64,000 nt of DNA from Escherichia phage TH09. The notes under the pieces were generated by a model that was given only the letters and a program-made list of their open reading frames with translations, was not told where the DNA came from and ran no database searches. A program made the translations under genes and the position numbers. Numbering within the stretch: position 1 is the first letter of the stretch; every line of letters starts with the position of its first letter. Shown here piece by piece: positions 2,585-45,019 of this stretch. The stretch lies in sequence record MT446387.1; one strand, given 5' to 3'.

Positions 2585-3060
2585 TTGTAAAATATATCAA
2601 GGGCGATATTGTCGCCCTATTTCTTCAAGGTAATATTATTGCGCACGGGTGCAATTGTTTTCATACTATGGGTTCAGGTGTAGCGGGTCAATTAGCAAGA
2701 GCCTATCCCAAAATTTTAGAAATAGATAAAACCACTACTGAGTACGGTTCTCGTGATAAATTAGGCGATATGTCTATTGTTTTTAAACATAAACCTAATG
2801 GTTTTGGCATATGTTATAACTTGTATACGCAATACGAACCAGGTCCTAATCTTGATTATGGTGCTTTAGTAAACTGCATGATAGAATTAAATCTACAGGC
2901 AGAAACCCTTTTGTTTAAACCGGTAATTTACATTCCACGCATAGGTTGTGGTATTGCTGGCGGCGATTGGGATAAGGTTTCTAAATTAATCGACATGTTT
3001 ACTCCTGATATTGATTTAATAGTGGTGGATTATGAAAGTACATTACCCGCATCCGTTTGA
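2581..3060 (+). CDS. macro-domain protein (ADP-ribose binding/processing fold)
   Basis: motif IKGDIV...NIIAHGCNCFHTMGSGVAGQL and CGIAGG typical of macro domains. Confidence 0.6.
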   Translation: MIVKYIKGDIVALFLQGNIIAHGCNCFHTMGSGVAGQLARAYPKILEIDKTTTEYGSRDKLGDMSIVFKHKPNGFGICYNLYTQYEPGPNLDYGALVNCMIELNLQAETLLFKPVIYIPRIGCGIAGGDWDKVSKLIDMFTPDIDLIVVDYESTLPASV

Positions 3061-3244
3061 TCCTAAAAACAAAGCAGTAATTATTCGTCAATGGGAACGC
3101 ATTTGCCGTACTAAATGTCCAATTAATAGTCCACATGATGTAGATAAAGACTACATTGGAACATTCGTTGAATATACTTTTATTGATAAGAAAGGTCGTA
3201 AACAACATGTAGAAGAATATTGCTTAAAGGTTACATGGTTATGA
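3032..3244 (+). CDS. hypothetical protein
   Basis: 70-aa ORF overlapping upstream gene end. Confidence 0.35.
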   Translation: MKVHYPHPFDPKNKAVIIRQWERICRTKCPINSPHDVDKDYIGTFVEYTFIDKKGRKQHVEEYCLKVTWL

Positions 3245-3447
3245 GCCAAACTAGTATTCTTAAAAATGCCCACTGTGAAAAGTGTAAGTGGCCTGTTGTT
3301 TTTGCTTTATGCAACGATGAAATGGCTTGTGATTTCGATTATTGGTGCTATTGTTCTAATAAAGGATGCATCAATCATAAAGGTGAAGGATTTTATTCAG
3401 GATTTTATCCTTATCCTGATTTCGTTAAAGAAGGTAAACCAAAATGA
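3241..3447 (+). CDS. Cys-rich putative zinc-binding small protein
   Basis: ATGA stop/start overlap; CEKC...C..C...CYC...C pattern. Confidence 0.4.
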   Translation: MSQTSILKNAHCEKCKWPVVFALCNDEMACDFDYWCYCSNKGCINHKGEGFYSGFYPYPDFVKEGKPK

Positions 3448-3629
3448 ATAATTTTGAGTTACAATACGAAGTGTTACGTGAGCTTGATAATTTAATTGAA
3501 CTCGCTGTTAATAAAGGTTTTGCCATTGGAATCGGTCAAAAAGATACTGGTCATTTAACTATGGAAATATTTAAGCAAAAGCGAATTATTTTAAAACTCC
3601 TGGAAATTAATATATATGAGTCTGAGTAA
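3444..3629 (+). CDS. hypothetical protein
   Basis: 61-aa ORF, ATGA overlap with upstream. Confidence 0.4.
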   Translation: MNNFELQYEVLRELDNLIELAVNKGFAIGIGQKDTGHLTMEIFKQKRIILKLLEINIYESE

Positions 3630-3801
3630 AGAACAAAAAGATAAATTGTTTGAGCTTATCCATGAACTTCTAGATGAGCATATAGAAGCAAACACTTTTT
3701 ATGATGAATACGGCCCGCTATCTCCAGAACAGCAGGAAGAATTTGCTGATCGGTTTGATAAGAAAGAAAACGAATTAATAGCTTATGTGAATACGCTTTA
3801 A
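3616..3801 (+). CDS. hypothetical protein
   Basis: 61-aa acidic ORF. Confidence 0.4.
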   Translation: MSLSKEQKDKLFELIHELLDEHIEANTFYDEYGPLSPEQQEEFADRFDKKENELIAYVNTL

Positions 3802-3810
3802 GAAGGTGAT

Positions 3811-4392
3811 ATGGCGAGTTTAATTTTTACTTATGCAGCAATGAATGCTGGAAAATCTGCTTCTCTTTTGACTGCTGCACATAATTATAAAGAACGTGGA
3901 ATGAGTGTATTAGTTCTTAAGCCTGCTATTGATACTCGCGATTCTGTCTGTGAAGTTGTTTCTCGCATTGGAATTAAACAGGAAGCGAATATTATTACAG
4001 ATGATATGGATATTTTCGAGTTCTATAAATGGGCTGAAGCACAAAAAGATATTCATTGCGTATTTGTAGATGAAGCTCAGTTTTTAAAAACTGAACAGGT
4101 GCATCAATTAAGTCGAATTGTTGATACATATAATGTTCCTGTTATGGCTTATGGATTAAGGACTGATTTCGCTGGAAAATTGTTTGAAGGTTCTAAAGAA
4201 CTTTTAGCGATTGCAGATAAACTTATTGAACTAAAGGCAGTTTGTCATTGCGGCAAAAAAGCGATTATGACAGCTCGATTAATGGAAGATGGAACACCAG
4301 TTAAAGAAGGTAATCAAATCTGTATTGGTGATGAAATTTATGTTTCTTTGTGCAGAAAACATTGGAATGAATTAACTAAAAAGCTCGGTTAG
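3811..4392 (+). CDS. tk: thymidine kinase
   Basis: 193 aa; P-loop AMNAGKSASLL; C-terminal CxxC...C zinc motif; matches T4 Tk. Confidence 0.9.
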   Translation: MASLIFTYAAMNAGKSASLLTAAHNYKERGMSVLVLKPAIDTRDSVCEVVSRIGIKQEANIITDDMDIFEFYKWAEAQKDIHCVFVDEAQFLKTEQVHQLSRIVDTYNVPVMAYGLRTDFAGKLFEGSKELLAIADKLIELKAVCHCGKKAIMTARLMEDGTPVKEGNQICIGDEIYVSLCRKHWNELTKKLG

Positions 4393-39761: not shown

Positions 39762-41189
39762 GTGGTAGAAATTATTCTTTCTCATCTCATATTTGATCAA
39801 GCTTATTTTTCAAAAGTTTGGCCATATATGGATTCAGAATATTTTGAAAGTGGTCCAGCTAAAAATACATTCAAATTAATTAAATCTCATGTTAACGAGT
39901 ATCATAGCGTTCCATCTATTAATGCGTTAAATGTTGCGTTAGAAAATAGTTCATTTACTGAAACAGAATATTCTGGTGTAAAAACACTTATTTCAAAACT
40001 GGCCGATTCTCCGGAAGACCATAGCTGGTTAGTAAAAGAAACAGAAAAATATGTTCAGCAAAGGGCGATGTTTAATGCTACGTCTAAAATAATCGAAATT
40101 CAAACTAATGCTGAGCTTCCTCCGGAAAAACGAAATAAGAAAATGCCGGATGTTGGTGCTATTCCTGACATCATGCGACAAGCATTATCAATTTCATTTG
40201 ATAGTTATGTTGGTCATGATTGGATGGATGACTACGAAGCACGCTGGCTATCTTATATGAATAAAGCTCGTAAGGTTCCATTTAAACTCAAAATTCTAAA
40301 TAAAATTACTAAAGGCGGAGCTGAAACTGGAACACTGAACGTTTTAATGGCTGGTGTTAACGTTGGTAAGTCATTAGGTCTGTGTTCATTGGCAGCAGAT
40401 TATTTGCAGCTCGGACATAATGTTCTTTACATTTCCATGGAAATGGCAGAAGAAGTCTGTGCTAAACGTATTGATGCTAATATGCTTGACGTTTCTCTTG
40501 ATGACATTGACGATGGGCATATTTCTTACGCTGAATATAAAGGAAAAATGGAAAAATGGCGTGAGAAATCTACTCTCGGCCGTTTAATCGTTAAACAGTA
40601 TCCTACTGGTGGAGCAGACGCTAATACATTTCGATCGCTTTTAAACGAATTAAAGCTCAAGAAGAATTTTGTTCCAACAATCATTATTGTTGACTATCTA
40701 GGTATTTGTAAATCTTGCCGCATCAGAGTTTATTCAGAAAATAGTTACACAACTGTTAAAGCCATCGCAGAAGAATTGCGTGCTCTTGCTGTTGAAACCG
40801 AAACTGTTCTTTGGACCGCAGCACAGGTTGGTAAACAAGCTTGGGATTCTTCTGATGTTAACATGAGCGATATTGCAGAATCTGCCGGTCTTCCAGCAAC
40901 AGCCGATTTTATGCTTGCGGTCATTGAAACTGAGGAGTTAGCAGCTGCTGAACAACAACTCATTAAGCAAATCAAATCACGATATGGCGATAAGAATAAG
41001 TGGAATAAGTTTTTGATGGGTGTTCAAAAGGGAAATCAGAAATGGGTAGAAATTGAACAAGATTCTACTCCAACTGAAGTGAGTGAAGTAGCAGGTTCAC
41101 AACAGATTCAGGCTGAACAGAATCGCTATCAAAGAAATGAATCCACTCGAGCACAGTTAGATGCTTTGGCAAATGAATTAAAATTTTAG
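39762..41189 (+). CDS. 41: replicative DNA helicase gp41 (DnaB-like)
   Basis: 475 aa, GTG start; Walker A GVNVGKS. Confidence 0.9.
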   Translation: MVEIILSHLIFDQAYFSKVWPYMDSEYFESGPAKNTFKLIKSHVNEYHSVPSINALNVALENSSFTETEYSGVKTLISKLADSPEDHSWLVKETEKYVQQRAMFNATSKIIEIQTNAELPPEKRNKKMPDVGAIPDIMRQALSISFDSYVGHDWMDDYEARWLSYMNKARKVPFKLKILNKITKGGAETGTLNVLMAGVNVGKSLGLCSLAADYLQLGHNVLYISMEMAEEVCAKRIDANMLDVSLDDIDDGHISYAEYKGKMEKWREKSTLGRLIVKQYPTGGADANTFRSLLNELKLKKNFVPTIIIVDYLGICKSCRIRVYSENSYTTVKAIAEELRALAVETETVLWTAAQVGKQAWDSSDVNMSDIAESAGLPATADFMLAVIETEELAAAEQQLIKQIKSRYGDKNKWNKFLMGVQKGNQKWVEIEQDSTPTEVSEVAGSQQIQAEQNRYQRNESTRAQLDALANELKF

Positions 41190-41247: not shown

Positions 41248-41430
41248 ATGGAATTGGTAAAGGTAGTTTTTATGGGGTGGTTTAAGAATGAAAGCATGTT
41301 TATTAAAGAAACCACAATGATGAAAGATGACGTTCAATGGGCTACTACTCAATATGCTGAAGTTAATAAAGCATTAGTTAAAGCTTTCATTGATGACAAG
41401 AAAGTATGTGAAGTAGATTGCCGAGGATAA
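41248..41430 (+). CDS. hypothetical small protein
   Basis: 60 aa; SD gaggag. Confidence 0.4.
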   Translation: MELVKVVFMGWFKNESMFIKETTMMKDDVQWATTQYAEVNKALVKAFIDDKKVCEVDCRG

Positions 41431-41431
41431 T

Positions 41432-41689
41432 ATGCATATTGTTTTATTTAAACCTACTCCGTATAACGTCAGGAAAAATACGCAATTCAAAGCGCTTATT
41501 GCGGATACATGGGAATTGGTGTTAGATATTCCAGCAGAAGAAAGTCCTCCATTTGGTCGAGTGGAATTTATTAAGTTTGTTGTACGTCCTACGAAGAGGC
41601 AGATTCGTCAGTGTAAAAGGCATTTTCGTAAGATCGTTAAGCTAGAGAAACAGTTTGTAACATGTGATTATGCAGAAGTTTTAAAATAA
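41432..41689 (+). CDS. hypothetical basic protein
   Basis: 85 aa. Confidence 0.4.
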   Translation: MHIVLFKPTPYNVRKNTQFKALIADTWELVLDIPAEESPPFGRVEFIKFVVRPTKRQIRQCKRHFRKIVKLEKQFVTCDYAEVLK

Positions 41690-41749: not shown

Positions 41750-42043
41750 ATGAAAAAATTTATTTTTGCTACAATTTTTACTTTGGCTTCTTGTGCTGCT
41801 CAGCCTGCTATGGCAGGATATGATAAAGATTTGTGTGAATGGTCTATGACTGCAGATCAGACTGAAGTTGAAACTCAAATTGAAGCGGATATTATGAATA
41901 TCGTTGAGCGCGATCGTCCTGAAATGAAAGCTGAAGTACAAAAACAGCTTAAGTCTGGTGGTGTAATGCAGTATAATTACGTTCTGTATTGTGATAAAAA
42001 CTTCAATAATAAAAATATCGTAACCGAAATCACAGGCGAATAA
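41750..42043 (+). CDS. sp: periplasmic Spackle-like protein
   Basis: 97 aa with signal peptide; position between 41 and 61; length equals T4 Sp. Confidence 0.5.
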   Translation: MKKFIFATIFTLASCAAQPAMAGYDKDLCEWSMTADQTEVETQIEADIMNIVERDRPEMKAEVQKQLKSGGVMQYNYVLYCDKNFNNKNIVTEITGE

Positions 42044-42044
42044 T

Positions 42045-42677
42045 ATGATTTATTATATGCACAAAAATCCACCGTTTAAATACGGTAAATTTCCTGATGC
42101 ACAATGTTATAATATAACGCCTGATGAAAATAACCGTGGATATCTTATTGGCACAATTTTTGTAATTGTTAAAGATAACGAAATCGTTGCCTGGGCAGAT
42201 TTTAAAGGTACAACATATGATGTTAATCCGGTGCCTTTCACATATTACAATTTAATGGATTTGGCATACGATTATAATTGGTTTAATCATGACACTTTGG
42301 CTCATATTGAAGGTGTAGGATTTGATATTTCATATTCGGAATACACTTTAAGCCCTATGAGTCGAGCCCATAAAGAACCTGAATATTTTTCATTTAGGAA
42401 ACGTGTAAACTTTAAACGCAGCACAGAGTATGTCGGTGGAATATTTGTTAAAGATAATCGAATTACTCGCATTATTTATCCTTTGGGCTGTGGTCAAAAA
42501 GATATTGATGTTAATTTAGACTTTACTGAAAACATCATTAATCATATTGCTTCTGTGTATTTTGGTATCGATCACAAAATTGTAATATGTGGATATGAAT
42601 TACCGTTTGAAGAACAGCCTAAAGTAAAAGTTTCTATTGACGATCAAATTTTTAATGCTTTTATGAATAAAGGTTAA
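42045..42677 (+). CDS. hypothetical protein (61.2-like position)
   Basis: 210 aa; C-terminus SIDDQIFNAFMNKG shared with next ORF. Confidence 0.45.
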   Translation: MIYYMHKNPPFKYGKFPDAQCYNITPDENNRGYLIGTIFVIVKDNEIVAWADFKGTTYDVNPVPFTYYNLMDLAYDYNWFNHDTLAHIEGVGFDISYSEYTLSPMSRAHKEPEYFSFRKRVNFKRSTEYVGGIFVKDNRITRIIYPLGCGQKDIDVNLDFTENIINHIASVYFGIDHKIVICGYELPFEEQPKVKVSIDDQIFNAFMNKG

Positions 42678-42683
42678 TATGTA
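42631..42683 (+). repeat. direct repeat copy 1 (about 50 bp) at gene junction
   Basis: tctattgacgatcaaatttttaatgcttttatgaataaaggttaatatg; near-identical copy at 42989..43041. Confidence 0.7.
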
Positions 42684-43035
42684 TAGTTCTGAATTTTCAT
42701 ATTTAAAAATGGAAAAAATTTCATACGATTTTATAGATGAAAAGGTTTATTACAGTTTCCATGAACCGCGTTTTAATAGTGAGGTTGGGTTTATTGTAGT
42801 AAAAGACAATTTCATTTTAAAGATATATTCGGCATTAAAGGATTTTCACTATGAAAATATTAACCTAAAATTTGATAAAGAAAACGTTCGTAATTGTGCA
42901 GTAACAATTACAGGAAATAAAGGTACGTGTGTTATGCTATCTGATGAAATTAATGATTTGCTAAATGATGCAGAAAATATTACTGCGCCATCTATTGATG
43001 ACCAAATTTTTAATGCTTTTATGAATAGAGGTTAA
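42679..43035 (+). CDS. hypothetical protein bracketed by direct repeats
   Basis: 118 aa; C-terminal 14 aa nearly identical to upstream gene. Confidence 0.45.
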   Translation: MYSSEFSYLKMEKISYDFIDEKVYYSFHEPRFNSEVGFIVVKDNFILKIYSALKDFHYENINLKFDKENVRNCAVTITGNKGTCVMLSDEINDLLNDAENITAPSIDDQIFNAFMNRG

Positions 43036-43041
43036 TATGAA
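42989..43041 (+). repeat. direct repeat copy 2
   Basis: tctattgatgaccaaatttttaatgcttttatgaatagaggttaatatg. Confidence 0.7.
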
Positions 43042-43201
43042 AACATATAAAGAATTTATCAAAGAAGATATGGTCGCTGGAGATTCAGGTGGTAGTCCTG
43101 AAAATATCTCTACTGGAACAACGTCAGGCGCTGTAGTAAATAAAGGTCCTGAACAGATTCCTAAAAAGAAAAAAGAGGAATCTAAAGAAAAAGAAGAGTA
43201 A
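43037..43201 (+). CDS. small Lys/Glu-rich protein
   Basis: about 54 aa; ends PKKKKEESKEKEE. Confidence 0.3.
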   Translation: MKTYKEFIKEDMVAGDSGGSPENISTGTTSGAVVNKGPEQIPKKKKEESKEKEE

Positions 43202-43203
43202 AA

Positions 43204-44232
43204 ATGTCATCAATACCTTGGATTGATAATGAGTTTGCATACCGTGCATTAGCTCATTTACCTAAATTCACACAAGTAAATAATAGTTCAACTTTTAAAT
43301 TACGGTTTAGATGTCCTGTTTGTGGAGATTCAAAAACCGACCAGAATAAAGCTCGTGGATGGTATTATGGTGATAATAATGAAGGAAATATTCATTGTTA
43401 TAACTGTAACTATCATGCACCAATCGGAATATATTTAAAGGAGTTTGAACCTGATTTATATCGTGAGTATATCTTTGAAATAAGAAAAGAAAAAGGTAAA
43501 AGTCGTCCAGTAGAAAAACCTAAAGAACTTCCTAAACAACCCGAAAAGAAAATAATTAAATCTCTTCCGTCATGTGTTAGATTAGATAAACTGGCGGAAG
43601 ACCATCCAATTATAAAATATGTAAAAGCTCGTTGTATTCCAAAGGATAAATGGAAATATCTTTGGTTTACAACTGAATGGCCTAAATTAGTTAATAGCAT
43701 AGCACCAGGAACATACAAAAAGGAAATTTCTGAGCCTCGTCTTGTTATTCCAATTTATAATGCTAATGGAAAAGCTGAGTCTTTTCAAGGACGTGCATTA
43801 AAGAAAGATGCTCCTCAAAAATATATCACCATTAAAGCTTATCCTGAGGCAACAAAAATTTACGGTGTTGAACGAGTTAAAGATGGTGATGTATATGTTC
43901 TAGAAGGACCTATAGATTCACTTTTTATTGAAAATGGTATAGCTATTACGGGTGGTCAATTAGACCTAGAAGTTGTTCCATTTAAAGATAGACGAGTGTG
44001 GGTTTTAGATAATGAACCTCGTCACCCTGACACTATCAAACGAATGACTAAATTAGTTGATGCAGGAGAAAGGGTTATGTTTTGGGATAAATCTCCCTGG
44101 AAATCAAAAGATGTCAATGATATGATTAGAAAGGAAGGTGCAACCCCTGAACAAATTATGAAATATATGAAAAATAATATTGCCCAGGGGTTGATGGCTA
44201 AAATGCGGCTATCTAAATATGCTAAGATTTAA
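43204..44232 (+). CDS. 61: DNA primase gp61
   Basis: 342 aa; N-terminal zinc ribbon CPVCGDSK...CYNCNYH; TOPRIM-like C-terminal region. Confidence 0.9.
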   Translation: MSSIPWIDNEFAYRALAHLPKFTQVNNSSTFKLRFRCPVCGDSKTDQNKARGWYYGDNNEGNIHCYNCNYHAPIGIYLKEFEPDLYREYIFEIRKEKGKSRPVEKPKELPKQPEKKIIKSLPSCVRLDKLAEDHPIIKYVKARCIPKDKWKYLWFTTEWPKLVNSIAPGTYKKEISEPRLVIPIYNANGKAESFQGRALKKDAPQKYITIKAYPEATKIYGVERVKDGDVYVLEGPIDSLFIENGIAITGGQLDLEVVPFKDRRVWVLDNEPRHPDTIKRMTKLVDAGERVMFWDKSPWKSKDVNDMIRKEGATPEQIMKYMKNNIAQGLMAKMRLSKYAKI

Positions 44233-44429
44233 ATTAACCCAACTAAAGCAAATGCTAAATCTACGAATGTATCAAGAGTAACTACTGGAATATTAATACC
44301 ATGTGCAATTGCAACAGGTGATAAAATAAAGTTCCAGAGTAAAATTCCTACCATAGCAGAAATAGTAAAAGCTATACGTTTTTTATTACCTTTTATGGCA
44401 TTAACAAGTGCCATTAATTTTTGTACCAT
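44229..44429 (-). CDS. antisense-oriented small membrane protein
   Basis: 66 aa on minus strand; strong SD AAGGAGG 4 nt before ATG; two hydrophobic segments; only convincing minus-strand gene in window. Confidence 0.45.
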   Translation of the reverse strand: MVQKLMALVNAIKGNKKRIAFTISAMVGILLWNFILSPVAIAHGINIPVVTLDTFVDLAFALVGLI

Positions 44430-44466: not shown

Positions 44467-44500
44467 TAATCTACTAACCCATGAATTGAAAGGAAAAATA

Positions 44501-45019
44501 ATGGCTTACTTTAATGAATGTTCACAACTGATCGAAGGCGCTGATAAAGCTCAAAATGAATACTGGGATATTCTCGGTGATGAAAAAGACCCGCTGCAGG
44601 TTATGCTTGATATGCAGAAATCTCTGCAGGTTCGTTTAGCTAAAGATAAACCTGAATATAACCGTCATCCTGATGATTTGGCTACTGCAGGTGAAGTTGT
44701 TGATTGGCTGCGCAATCAGAAAGATTATATTGATGATGAATTCCGCGAACTTCTGACTTCTCTTGGTGGTATGAGCAATGGTGAAAAAGATGCATCTGCT
44801 GTATGGAAGCCATGGAAAGCTCAACATGGTGAACGTCGTGAAACTCTGATTACTGATTTGTCTCCACAAGACCAGTTGGAAATTAAATTCGAAATGATTG
44901 ATATTCTTCATTTCGTTCTGAACATGTTCCAAGGTCTCGGTCTTACGGCTGAAGAAATCTTTAAACTTTATTATCTGAAAAATGCTGAAAACTTCGCTCG
45001 CCAAGACCGAGGTTACTAA
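44501..45019 (+). CDS. 56: dCTPase/dUTPase gp56
   Basis: 172 aa from ATG 44501 (track ORF begins upstream); MazG-like; matches T4 gp56. Confidence 0.8.
   Translation: MAYFNECSQLIEGADKAQNEYWDILGDEKDPLQVMLDMQKSLQVRLAKDKPEYNRHPDDLATAGEVVDWLRNQKDYIDDEFRELLTSLGGMSNGEKDASAVWKPWKAQHGERRETLITDLSPQDQLEIKFEMIDILHFVLNMFQGLGLTAEEIFKLYYLKNAENFARQDRGY

Follow-up and report, generated by a model that had tools for sequence, protein, structure and literature searches.

A 49-nt direct repeat at the ends of two tandem accessory genes marks the boundaries of a natural gene cassette in Tequatrovirus phages

The window, as the whole stretch of DNA analysed here is called, comprises 64,000 nucleotides of Escherichia phage TH09 (MT446387.1), a T4-like member of the genus Tequatrovirus. 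It contains, in the interval from gene 41 to gene 61, a 49-nt direct repeat, the two copies of which form the ends of two adjacent genes, adfA and an open reading frame of 118 codons called ORF118. The genes of this interval lie on the + strand in the order gene 41, dmd, 61.4/tifA, sp, adfA/61.2, ORF118, 61.1 and gene 61. The region 41750-43300 has 99.9% identity to Escherichia phage JLBYU22 and matches 664 phage records. Here sp is the conserved left flank and 61.1 the conserved right flank of a variable slot. The genes and the repeat copies are listed below.

39762-41189, + strand: gene 41, helicase.
41248-41430, + strand: dmd, 60 residues, RnlA inhibitor.
41432-41689, + strand: 61.4/tifA, 85 residues, ToxN inhibitor.
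41750-42043, + strand: sp (spackle), Pfam T4_Spackle at 152 bits, annotated sp in T4, T2 and others.
42045-42677, + strand: adfA (T4 gene 61.2), anti-DarT factor A, 210 residues, Pfam PF23813 at 455.6 bits over the full length.
42679-43035, + strand: ORF118 (RB32ORF033c family), 118 residues, phrog_4122 at 242 bits.
43037-43201, + strand: 61.1, phrog_1823 at 115 bits, annotated 61.1 in T4.
43204-44232, + strand: gene 61, DNA primase, annotated in T4 and relatives.
42633-42681, + strand: repeat copy 1, spanning the final 14 codons of adfA (SIDDQIFNAFMNKG), its TAA, one T and the start codon ATG of ORF118.
42991-43039, + strand: repeat copy 2, spanning the final 14 codons of ORF118 (SIDDQIFNAFMNRG), its TAA, one T and the start codon ATG of 61.1.

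A repeat search returned one strong direct repeat, the two copies of which are identical at 46 of 49 positions with a start-to-start spacing of 358. A match of this quality is expected by chance ~3e-13 times per window at the base composition of the window. The original prediction had described a 50-bp direct repeat; the repeat itself was found again, with a length of 49 nt. As claimed there, the open reading frames 42045-42677 (210 residues) and 42679-43035 (118 residues) share their last 14 codons, the stop codon and the start context of the following gene. The peptide common to both copies is SIDDQIFNAFMN-K/R-G, and the junction of stop codon, Shine-Dalgarno (SD) element and start codon reads A[AG]AGGTTAATATG, with TAATATG from stop to start. 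The three differences between the copies are two synonymous exchanges in Asp codons (GAC/GAT and GAT/GAC) and one exchange of lysine for arginine (AAA/AGA). Copy 2 is identical to the single copy present in T4 and in T2. Within Tequatrovirus the tails of adfA and ORF118 have ~94-98% DNA identity over the 49 nt, and the copies agree without a mismatch over runs of 25 nt in the window and, in phage Ge15, of up to 37 nt.

Comparisons with related phages showed four layouts of the slot, counted as records covering at least 80% of a junction-centred megablast query of ~147 nt.

sp-adfA-ORF118-61.1: 157 records, including the window, RB68, RB51 and Lutter.
sp-adfA-61.1: 227 records (estimated range ~170-230), including T4.
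sp-ORF118-61.1: 141 records, including T2.
sp-61.1: 76 records (estimated range ~30-76), including G3F10.

A separate search found ORF118 DNA in 298 phage records, a number equal to 157 + 141. Global alignments located the ends of the variable units. A single 358-bp gap that coincides precisely with the repeat separates Ge15 from T4, which are otherwise 96.4% identical, and the window differs from PE37 by one 358-bp gap at the repeat and an unrelated 3-bp indel. Similarly, the alignment of T2 with G3F10 has one 358-bp gap, flanked by TAGAGGTTA(G/A)TATG. The length of the indel equals the spacing of the repeat and the copies are in direct orientation, as is expected of recombination between direct repeats. 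The shorter allele keeps one copy in T4 and PE37 and a hybrid copy in sutha. In PE37 and sutha, as in T4, 61.1 comes immediately after adfA and the junction sequence is present once, an arrangement for which the original prediction had proposed that relatives be searched. ORF118 is a real presence/absence cassette, and in this respect the proposed cassette recombination agrees with the position of the 358-bp gap on the repeat. The gaps that correspond to adfA are 623 bp between the window and T2 and 615 bp between T4 and G3F10. They leave the last ~14 nt of the tail as a 12-nt spacer, TTAGAGG(T/C)TA(G/A)T, between sp and the next ATG. Deletion of adfA at a GAATAA microhomology was considered and rejected: it would remove 627 bp and 623 bp are observed, so that the T2-type junction is not a simple product of such a deletion. 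The empty layout sp-61.1 was most likely derived by loss, since tail-bearing genes follow sp in four genera.

Haplotypes were read at positions 9, 12 and 38 of the repeat in ~20 genomes; ~555 records bear the tail.

Window and Lutter: copy 1 C, T, A; copy 2 T, C, G.
T4, PE37 and T2: single copy T, C, G.
sutha (adfA followed by 61.1): single copy C, T, G.
Pinarejo: copy 1 T, T, A; copy 2 C, T, G.
Ge15: copy 1 T, C, A.

The single copy in sutha is chimeric: its 5' variants are those of copy 1 and its 3' variant is that of copy 2. In Pinarejo the 5' haplotypes are swapped between the copies. All four combinations of 5' and 3' variants occur. The 3' variant follows the downstream gene, being A at position 38 before ORF118 (A at position 41 in phage phiD1) and G before 61.1. 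Such a mixture is what crossovers inside the repeat would be expected to produce. Pattern scans of IMG/VR and of metagenome contigs yielded 11 further stretches (five of them on IMG/VR contigs already found), all with familiar haplotypes.

A larger array of the repeat is recorded in Yersinia phage phiD1 (NC_027353), where positions 3009-3967 of the retrieved locus hold four copies of the tail and two of ORF118 with a period of 552 bp. The array resembles a product of unequal crossover, but runs of N lie exactly there and it is perhaps an assembly artefact; it was not used. The record of DCP80, in which gp44 adjoins the locus, looks misassembled and was likewise set aside.

The tail is also found outside Tequatrovirus. 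A peptide of the form [IV]DDQIFNAFM[NK]R[GD] ends the 145-residue and 119-residue genes of Gaprivervirus, a 146-residue gene of Dhakavirus and AdfA of Mosigvirus, so that the same tail occurs in at least three gene families and four genera of the Tevenvirinae. In the Gaprivervirus phages VR7 and SP18, sp is followed by a gene of 145 or 146 residues (phrog_8539, JS98 ORF030c-like) ending in SVDDQIFNAFMKRD and then by a 119-residue orthologue of ORF118 ending in [IA]IDDQIFNAFMKRG. The 146-residue gene of Dhakavirus Bp7 ends in SIDDQIFNAFMNRG, and the 216-residue AdfA of Mosigvirus SF in SVDDQIFNAFMNRG. The codons of the tail vary synonymously between the genera (GAT/GAC, CAA/CAG, GCT/GCC/GCA, TTT/TTC, AGA/CGA), which argues for selection on the peptide. 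The Gaprivervirus orthologues have 41-46% identity to the tail-less ORF118 query, pointing to ORF118 as an old gene and not a recent insert. Both copies within a lineage share the states of that lineage (GCT with N-K/R in Tequatrovirus, GCC with K-R in Gaprivervirus), which hints at concerted evolution of the tails.

In more distant Tevenvirinae from IMG/VR, small open reading frames upstream of the 61.1 homologue end in DDDIFNAWMKR, DSQIFNYWMKK or DDQIFNFWIGHV. They encode 111-138 residues, look otherwise unrelated and lie at 1929-2309 in locus L029, at 1747-2082 in L034, L036 and L042, and at 1319-1735 in L043. At least for those ending in DDDIFNAWMKR the junction differs, the start codon of the next gene overlapping the stop codon. 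These variants suggest a wider family defined by its C-terminal helix. The best reading of the sequences is that the tail is an old selected motif of a small-protein family occupying this slot across the Tevenvirinae, rather than something made by insertion.

The original prediction had called the two proteins different apart from their ending. The shared ending stands, but the difference in the bodies probably does not. Pfam AdfA matches residues 22-118 of ORF118 at profile positions 113-211 with 31.9 bits (cut-off 27), and the precomputed Pfam label of the ORF118 cluster is also PF23813. Full-length BLASTP gave 33% identity over the whole of ORF118 (E = 2e-9), mostly from the tail. After removal of the last 14 residues, a weak similarity was retained in Smith-Waterman alignments (z = 4.1, P ~0.003). 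A hidden Markov model of the tail-less C-terminal half of AdfA scored Tequatrovirus ORF118 at 13.1 bits, a value reached by 0 of 500 shuffles. The spacing from VGxIxVKDN to EN..N is 27 residues in both proteins, and their predicted secondary structures follow the same order, ending in the tail helix. ORF118 is thus probably a distant paralogue of the C-terminal half of AdfA.

Several results weigh against this paralogy. The ORF118 orthologue of VR7 matches Pfam AdfA in the tail only, at 22.4 bits. Tail-less ORF118 matched no AdfA profile in PHROGs and found no adfA by tblastn. Comparison of the shallow tail-less family alignments with hhalign gave E = 0.001-0.004 and a probability of 9-18%. 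Foldseek against BFVD paired ORF118 with its own family and weakly with the 145-residue family, and not with AdfA, using AlphaFold models of low confidence (predicted local distance difference test, pLDDT, of 60 and 68). Wider protein searches returned close relatives only, in 5 clusters for ORF118 and 16 for AdfA, and no solved structure of either protein was found.

The best explanation of these observations, which we consider likely, is that a conserved C-terminal motif and the stop/SD/start junction behind it, possibly together with a MotA-type promoter, double as a recombination site. In this mechanism adfA and ORF118 are tandem accessory genes of the anti-toxin island between gene 41 and gene 61, and both end in S-I-D-D-Q-I-F-N-A-F-M-N-K/R-G, a predicted helix. 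The repeat would be the 3' module of an accessory-gene family, comprising the helix motif, translational coupling signals and a possible middle promoter. As the module is nearly identical in the tandem genes, it would offer 49 nt of direct homology and an in-frame crossover site. Much shorter stretches of homology, of 6-10 bp, suffice for T4 recombination in this region (PMC9391042). A crossover between the copies would delete exactly 358 bp, that is ORF118, and leave an intact adfA tail joined to 61.1, whereas unequal exchange between co-infecting genomes would restore ORF118. Events that add or remove adfA would have one of their ends within the final ~14 nt of this junction. The four layouts would then arise as the two units reassort freely, and ordinary recombination in sp and in 61.1/61 would spread each state. 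A repeat of ~49 nt with perfect runs of 25 to 37 nt should, on what Singer and colleagues reportedly found in 1982, recombine much more frequently than microhomologies of 6-10 bp.

Some points count against a special role of the repeat in recombination. Once present, an indel could pass between genomes by ordinary exchange in the neighbouring genes sp and 61.1/61, with the repeat taking no part. The haplotype sample is small, and recurrent mutation could produce mixed haplotypes because the differences, in synonymous GAY codons and in the K/R codon, are all transitions. The DNA identity of the tails appears only modestly higher than that given by identical residues and codon bias, which account for most of it: the tails in the window differ synonymously at 2 of 12 comparable codons, compared with 5.4 expected from codon usage (P = 0.035). 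In addition, the counts of records in which adfA or sp is followed by 61.1 are perhaps inflated by the joining of nearby pieces in the search; the ranges of ~170-230 and ~30-76 were estimated from coverage classes and tail counts.

The junction itself carries signals for translation. An SD-like A(A/G)AGG lies 6-7 nt before the next ATG in each copy, and the tight TAA-N-ATG junction is typical of coupled T4 genes, from which coupling of each gene to the next is predicted. The SD-like element before ORF118 includes repeat position 38 (42670, compared with 43028 in copy 2) and reads AAAGG in the window and AGAGA in phiD1, and AGAGG is found before 61.1 and before ORF118 in T2-type phages. Since the element differs there, ORF118 may be translated less well when it follows adfA.

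Part of the DNA conservation may have another source, compatible with the recombination site proposed above: an embedded MotA/AsiA middle promoter that feeds the primase gene, with each cassette carrying its own promoter. This is possible, and we hold it tentatively. The two predicted motifs are the following.

42653-42680, + strand: MotA-box-like motif in copy 1, TAATGCTTTT, 12 nt, TAATAT; predicted.
43011-43038, + strand: MotA-box-like motif in copy 2, of the same composition, upstream of 61.1 and the primase gene; predicted.

The consensus of MotA middle promoters is (a/t)3TGCTTtA-N11-13-TAtaAT (PMC1524935). The box is expected to be centred near -30. TAATGCTTTT matches 9 of 10 positions of the box, and in both copies TAATAT, a TAnnnT -10 element, follows the box after 12 bp, within the 11-13 bp of the consensus. 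Both copies also match the looser pattern TGCTT-N13-15-TANNNT, and the record of phage Lutter (MT682714) annotates a 27-bp 'promoter' in each copy. However, the box is imperfect, reading TGCTTTT and not TGCTTTA, with T where the consensus has its final A. The loose pattern occurs 31 times in the window, compared with 14.8 expected, so that about half of its matches are expected by chance. Moreover, Gaprivervirus, Dhakavirus and Mosigvirus use GCC or GCA for the Ala encoded within the box, so that the box is not conserved there although the peptide is kept. Transcripts starting ~7 nt beyond TAATAT would begin within the next gene, and such a promoter would therefore serve gene 61 and not 61.1. 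No mapped start site or middle promoter upstream of 61.1/61 was found in PMC2988021 or PMC6024815, and the former, the review by Hinton, does not mention gene 61 or 61.1. A sigma-70 scan gave no + strand site inside either copy, and no terminator-like site was found in the repeat region. The predicted RNA folds are weak (-4.3 and -11.1 kcal/mol, z = +1.3 and -1.5). In the window as a whole, 24 of the 31 matches to the loose pattern are on the + strand, and their excess fits many real middle promoters in the early/middle gene block.

Alternatively, adfA and ORF118 could be passive paralogues, the repeat being their best-conserved part, kept by selection on the peptide and on the stop, SD and start signals, with no special role in recombination; the layouts would then result from rare microhomology deletions followed by spread through the flanks. 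Most of the nucleotide identity does come from identical amino acids and codon bias, and the adfA indel involves no more of the tail than its final ~14 nt, with ends unlike the GAATAA product. T4 also readily uses microhomologies of 6-10 bp: in laboratory evolution it underwent repeated dmd-tifA amplifications and multi-kb deletions at such sites (PMC9391042). However, in each of two independent backgrounds of adfA alleles the ORF118 indel agrees with the repeat at single-base precision, and both the chimeric copy of sutha and the swapped 5' haplotypes of Pinarejo speak against passive copies. We regard this explanation as unlikely.

The original prediction had taken the shared tail as the footprint of a gene insertion. 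In the form considered here the insertion would be recent: an unrelated gene of 118 codons would have entered between adfA and 61.1, with duplication or copying of the 49-bp tail. The repeat does bracket exactly one gene, the single junction copy of T4 is identical to copy 2 of the window, and the synonymous identity of the tails is somewhat above expectation. However, tailed ORF118 occurs without adfA in ~141 records including T2, and the tail is present on the Gaprivervirus orthologues, on the third family of 145-146 residues and, as variants, in distant genera. ORF118 also scores above the Pfam AdfA threshold and keeps its similarity without the tail, and scans of open reading frames, Pfam and PHROG revealed no gene for a transposase, a homing endonuclease or any other mobility function within the unit. 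The occurrence of one peptide, with synonymous codon differences, on three families in four genera contradicts an insertion product. Unrelated C-termini in relatives had been named as the outcome that would speak for a chance duplication; every relative examined has the same tail. The insertion footprint is already largely refuted by the tails of orthologues and of other families, and we consider it very improbable. Chance similarity or an assembly artefact can practically be dismissed, given the expectation calculated above and the presence of the two-copy layout in ~157 independent phage records and in metagenome contigs; nothing in the window supports it, and only the four-copy array of phiD1 may be an artefact.

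The surroundings of the cassette vary as well. The adfA of the window encodes a histidine (H167, in the motif ENIINHIAS) at the specificity position, which is equivalent to R164 of RB69 AdfA, and the change R164H in the latter leads to neutralisation of DarT1 (PMC11257639). The 5' third of adfA (42045-42220) is mosaic: its first ~57 codons exist in two very different allelic forms, the T4 type and the type of the window and RB69, with the same downstream sequence joined to both. Many records align with the query of the region 41750-43300 only from ~42217 onward (query 468-1551), and both 5' forms are found with and without ORF118. The right flank, 61.1, is a free-standing gene of 54 residues in the window, unlike in Mosigvirus SF (positions 2906-3373 of the retrieved locus). 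There and in several more distant genera (~2283-2765 in loci L032-L043) the 61.1 homologue is the C-terminal third of a protein of 154-155 residues (phrog_2086, the 61.1-like part being profile positions 109-154). Further downstream, a 66-residue open reading frame on the - strand (44229-44429) overlaps the end of gene 61 by 4 nt; the annotation of its counterpart in T2, G3F10 and Pinarejo is that of a hypothetical protein. A homologue of the dCTPase gene 56 (44498-45019) comes directly after this frame, whereas in T4 dam follows gene 61.

The region dmd-tifA-adfA has been proposed as an anti-toxin island of T-even phages (PMC9391042), in which dmd inhibits RnlA, tifA/61.4 inhibits ToxN and adfA/61.2 inhibits DarT. 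ORF118 and 61.1 also lie inside this island. The two units adfA and ORF118 assort independently among hundreds of natural phages, and loss or duplication of the 358-bp unit is a precise prediction that can be tested by polymerase chain reaction. ORF118 and the 145-residue family are cheap candidate counter-defence factors, because they share the most conserved motif of AdfA. In a broader and speculative version, the DDQIFNAFM helix would serve as the shared functional module, such as a peptide for docking or stabilisation, of a larger anti-toxin or anti-defence family with swappable specificity bodies between sp and 61.1. ORF118 and the 145-residue genes would inhibit other DarT-like or toxin-antitoxin defences, and the DNA of the helix would also carry the middle promoter, the SD element and the start codon. 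As a whole this appears rather improbable; if it were true, each gene would be a self-contained unit movable in frame, the coding counterpart of a PeSL.

The 41-61 region has been compared before; Selick and colleagues reportedly did so for T4, T2 and T6 in 1993. Comparison with AdfA (PF23813; PMC11257639, citing LeRoux et al. 2022) showed that ORF118 shares the C-terminal motif and lies above the Pfam threshold, whereas it is without the N-terminal half, has a body of ~20-25% identity and owes most of its Pfam score to the tail. Pfam thereby already places ORF118 in the AdfA family, and an anti-DarT role is putative. T2, which has ORF118 and no adfA, is resistant to DarTG1 owing to AdfN (PMC11257639).

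Recombination at microhomologies in T4 (Srikant, Guegler and Laub 2022, PMC9391042) concerns the same genome region and has the same result: accessory anti-defence genes lying between direct repeats are precisely gained or lost, and a single hybrid repeat remains at the junction. However, the laboratory events took place at chance microhomologies of 6-10 bp, whereas the repeat described here has 49 nt, is conserved, is taken to be functional and underlies natural, widespread alleles. The closest described system is PeSL shuffling in T4-type phages (PMC2839356; Comeau et al. 2014, PMC4122927). A PeSL is likewise a short conserved gene-boundary sequence in a variable region that ends with an SD element and the next start codon, marks the ends of insertions, deletions or replacements between close relatives and is thought to act by homologous recombination. 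In the present repeat, however, coding sequence (the final 14 codons) takes up 42 of the 49 nt, and the intergenic part is one base. There is no match to sigma-70 -35/-10 elements and no significant stem-loop; the core is a protein motif of related genes, and any promoter would be of the MotA middle type and not early. Assignment as a PeSL was rejected on three defining features, namely the intergenic position, the sigma-70 early promoter and the stem-loop. Thus, the repeat works like a PeSL but is not one, and the locus is a clean natural example of a known process rather than a new mechanism, the shuffling of T4-type genomes through short homologies being well documented.

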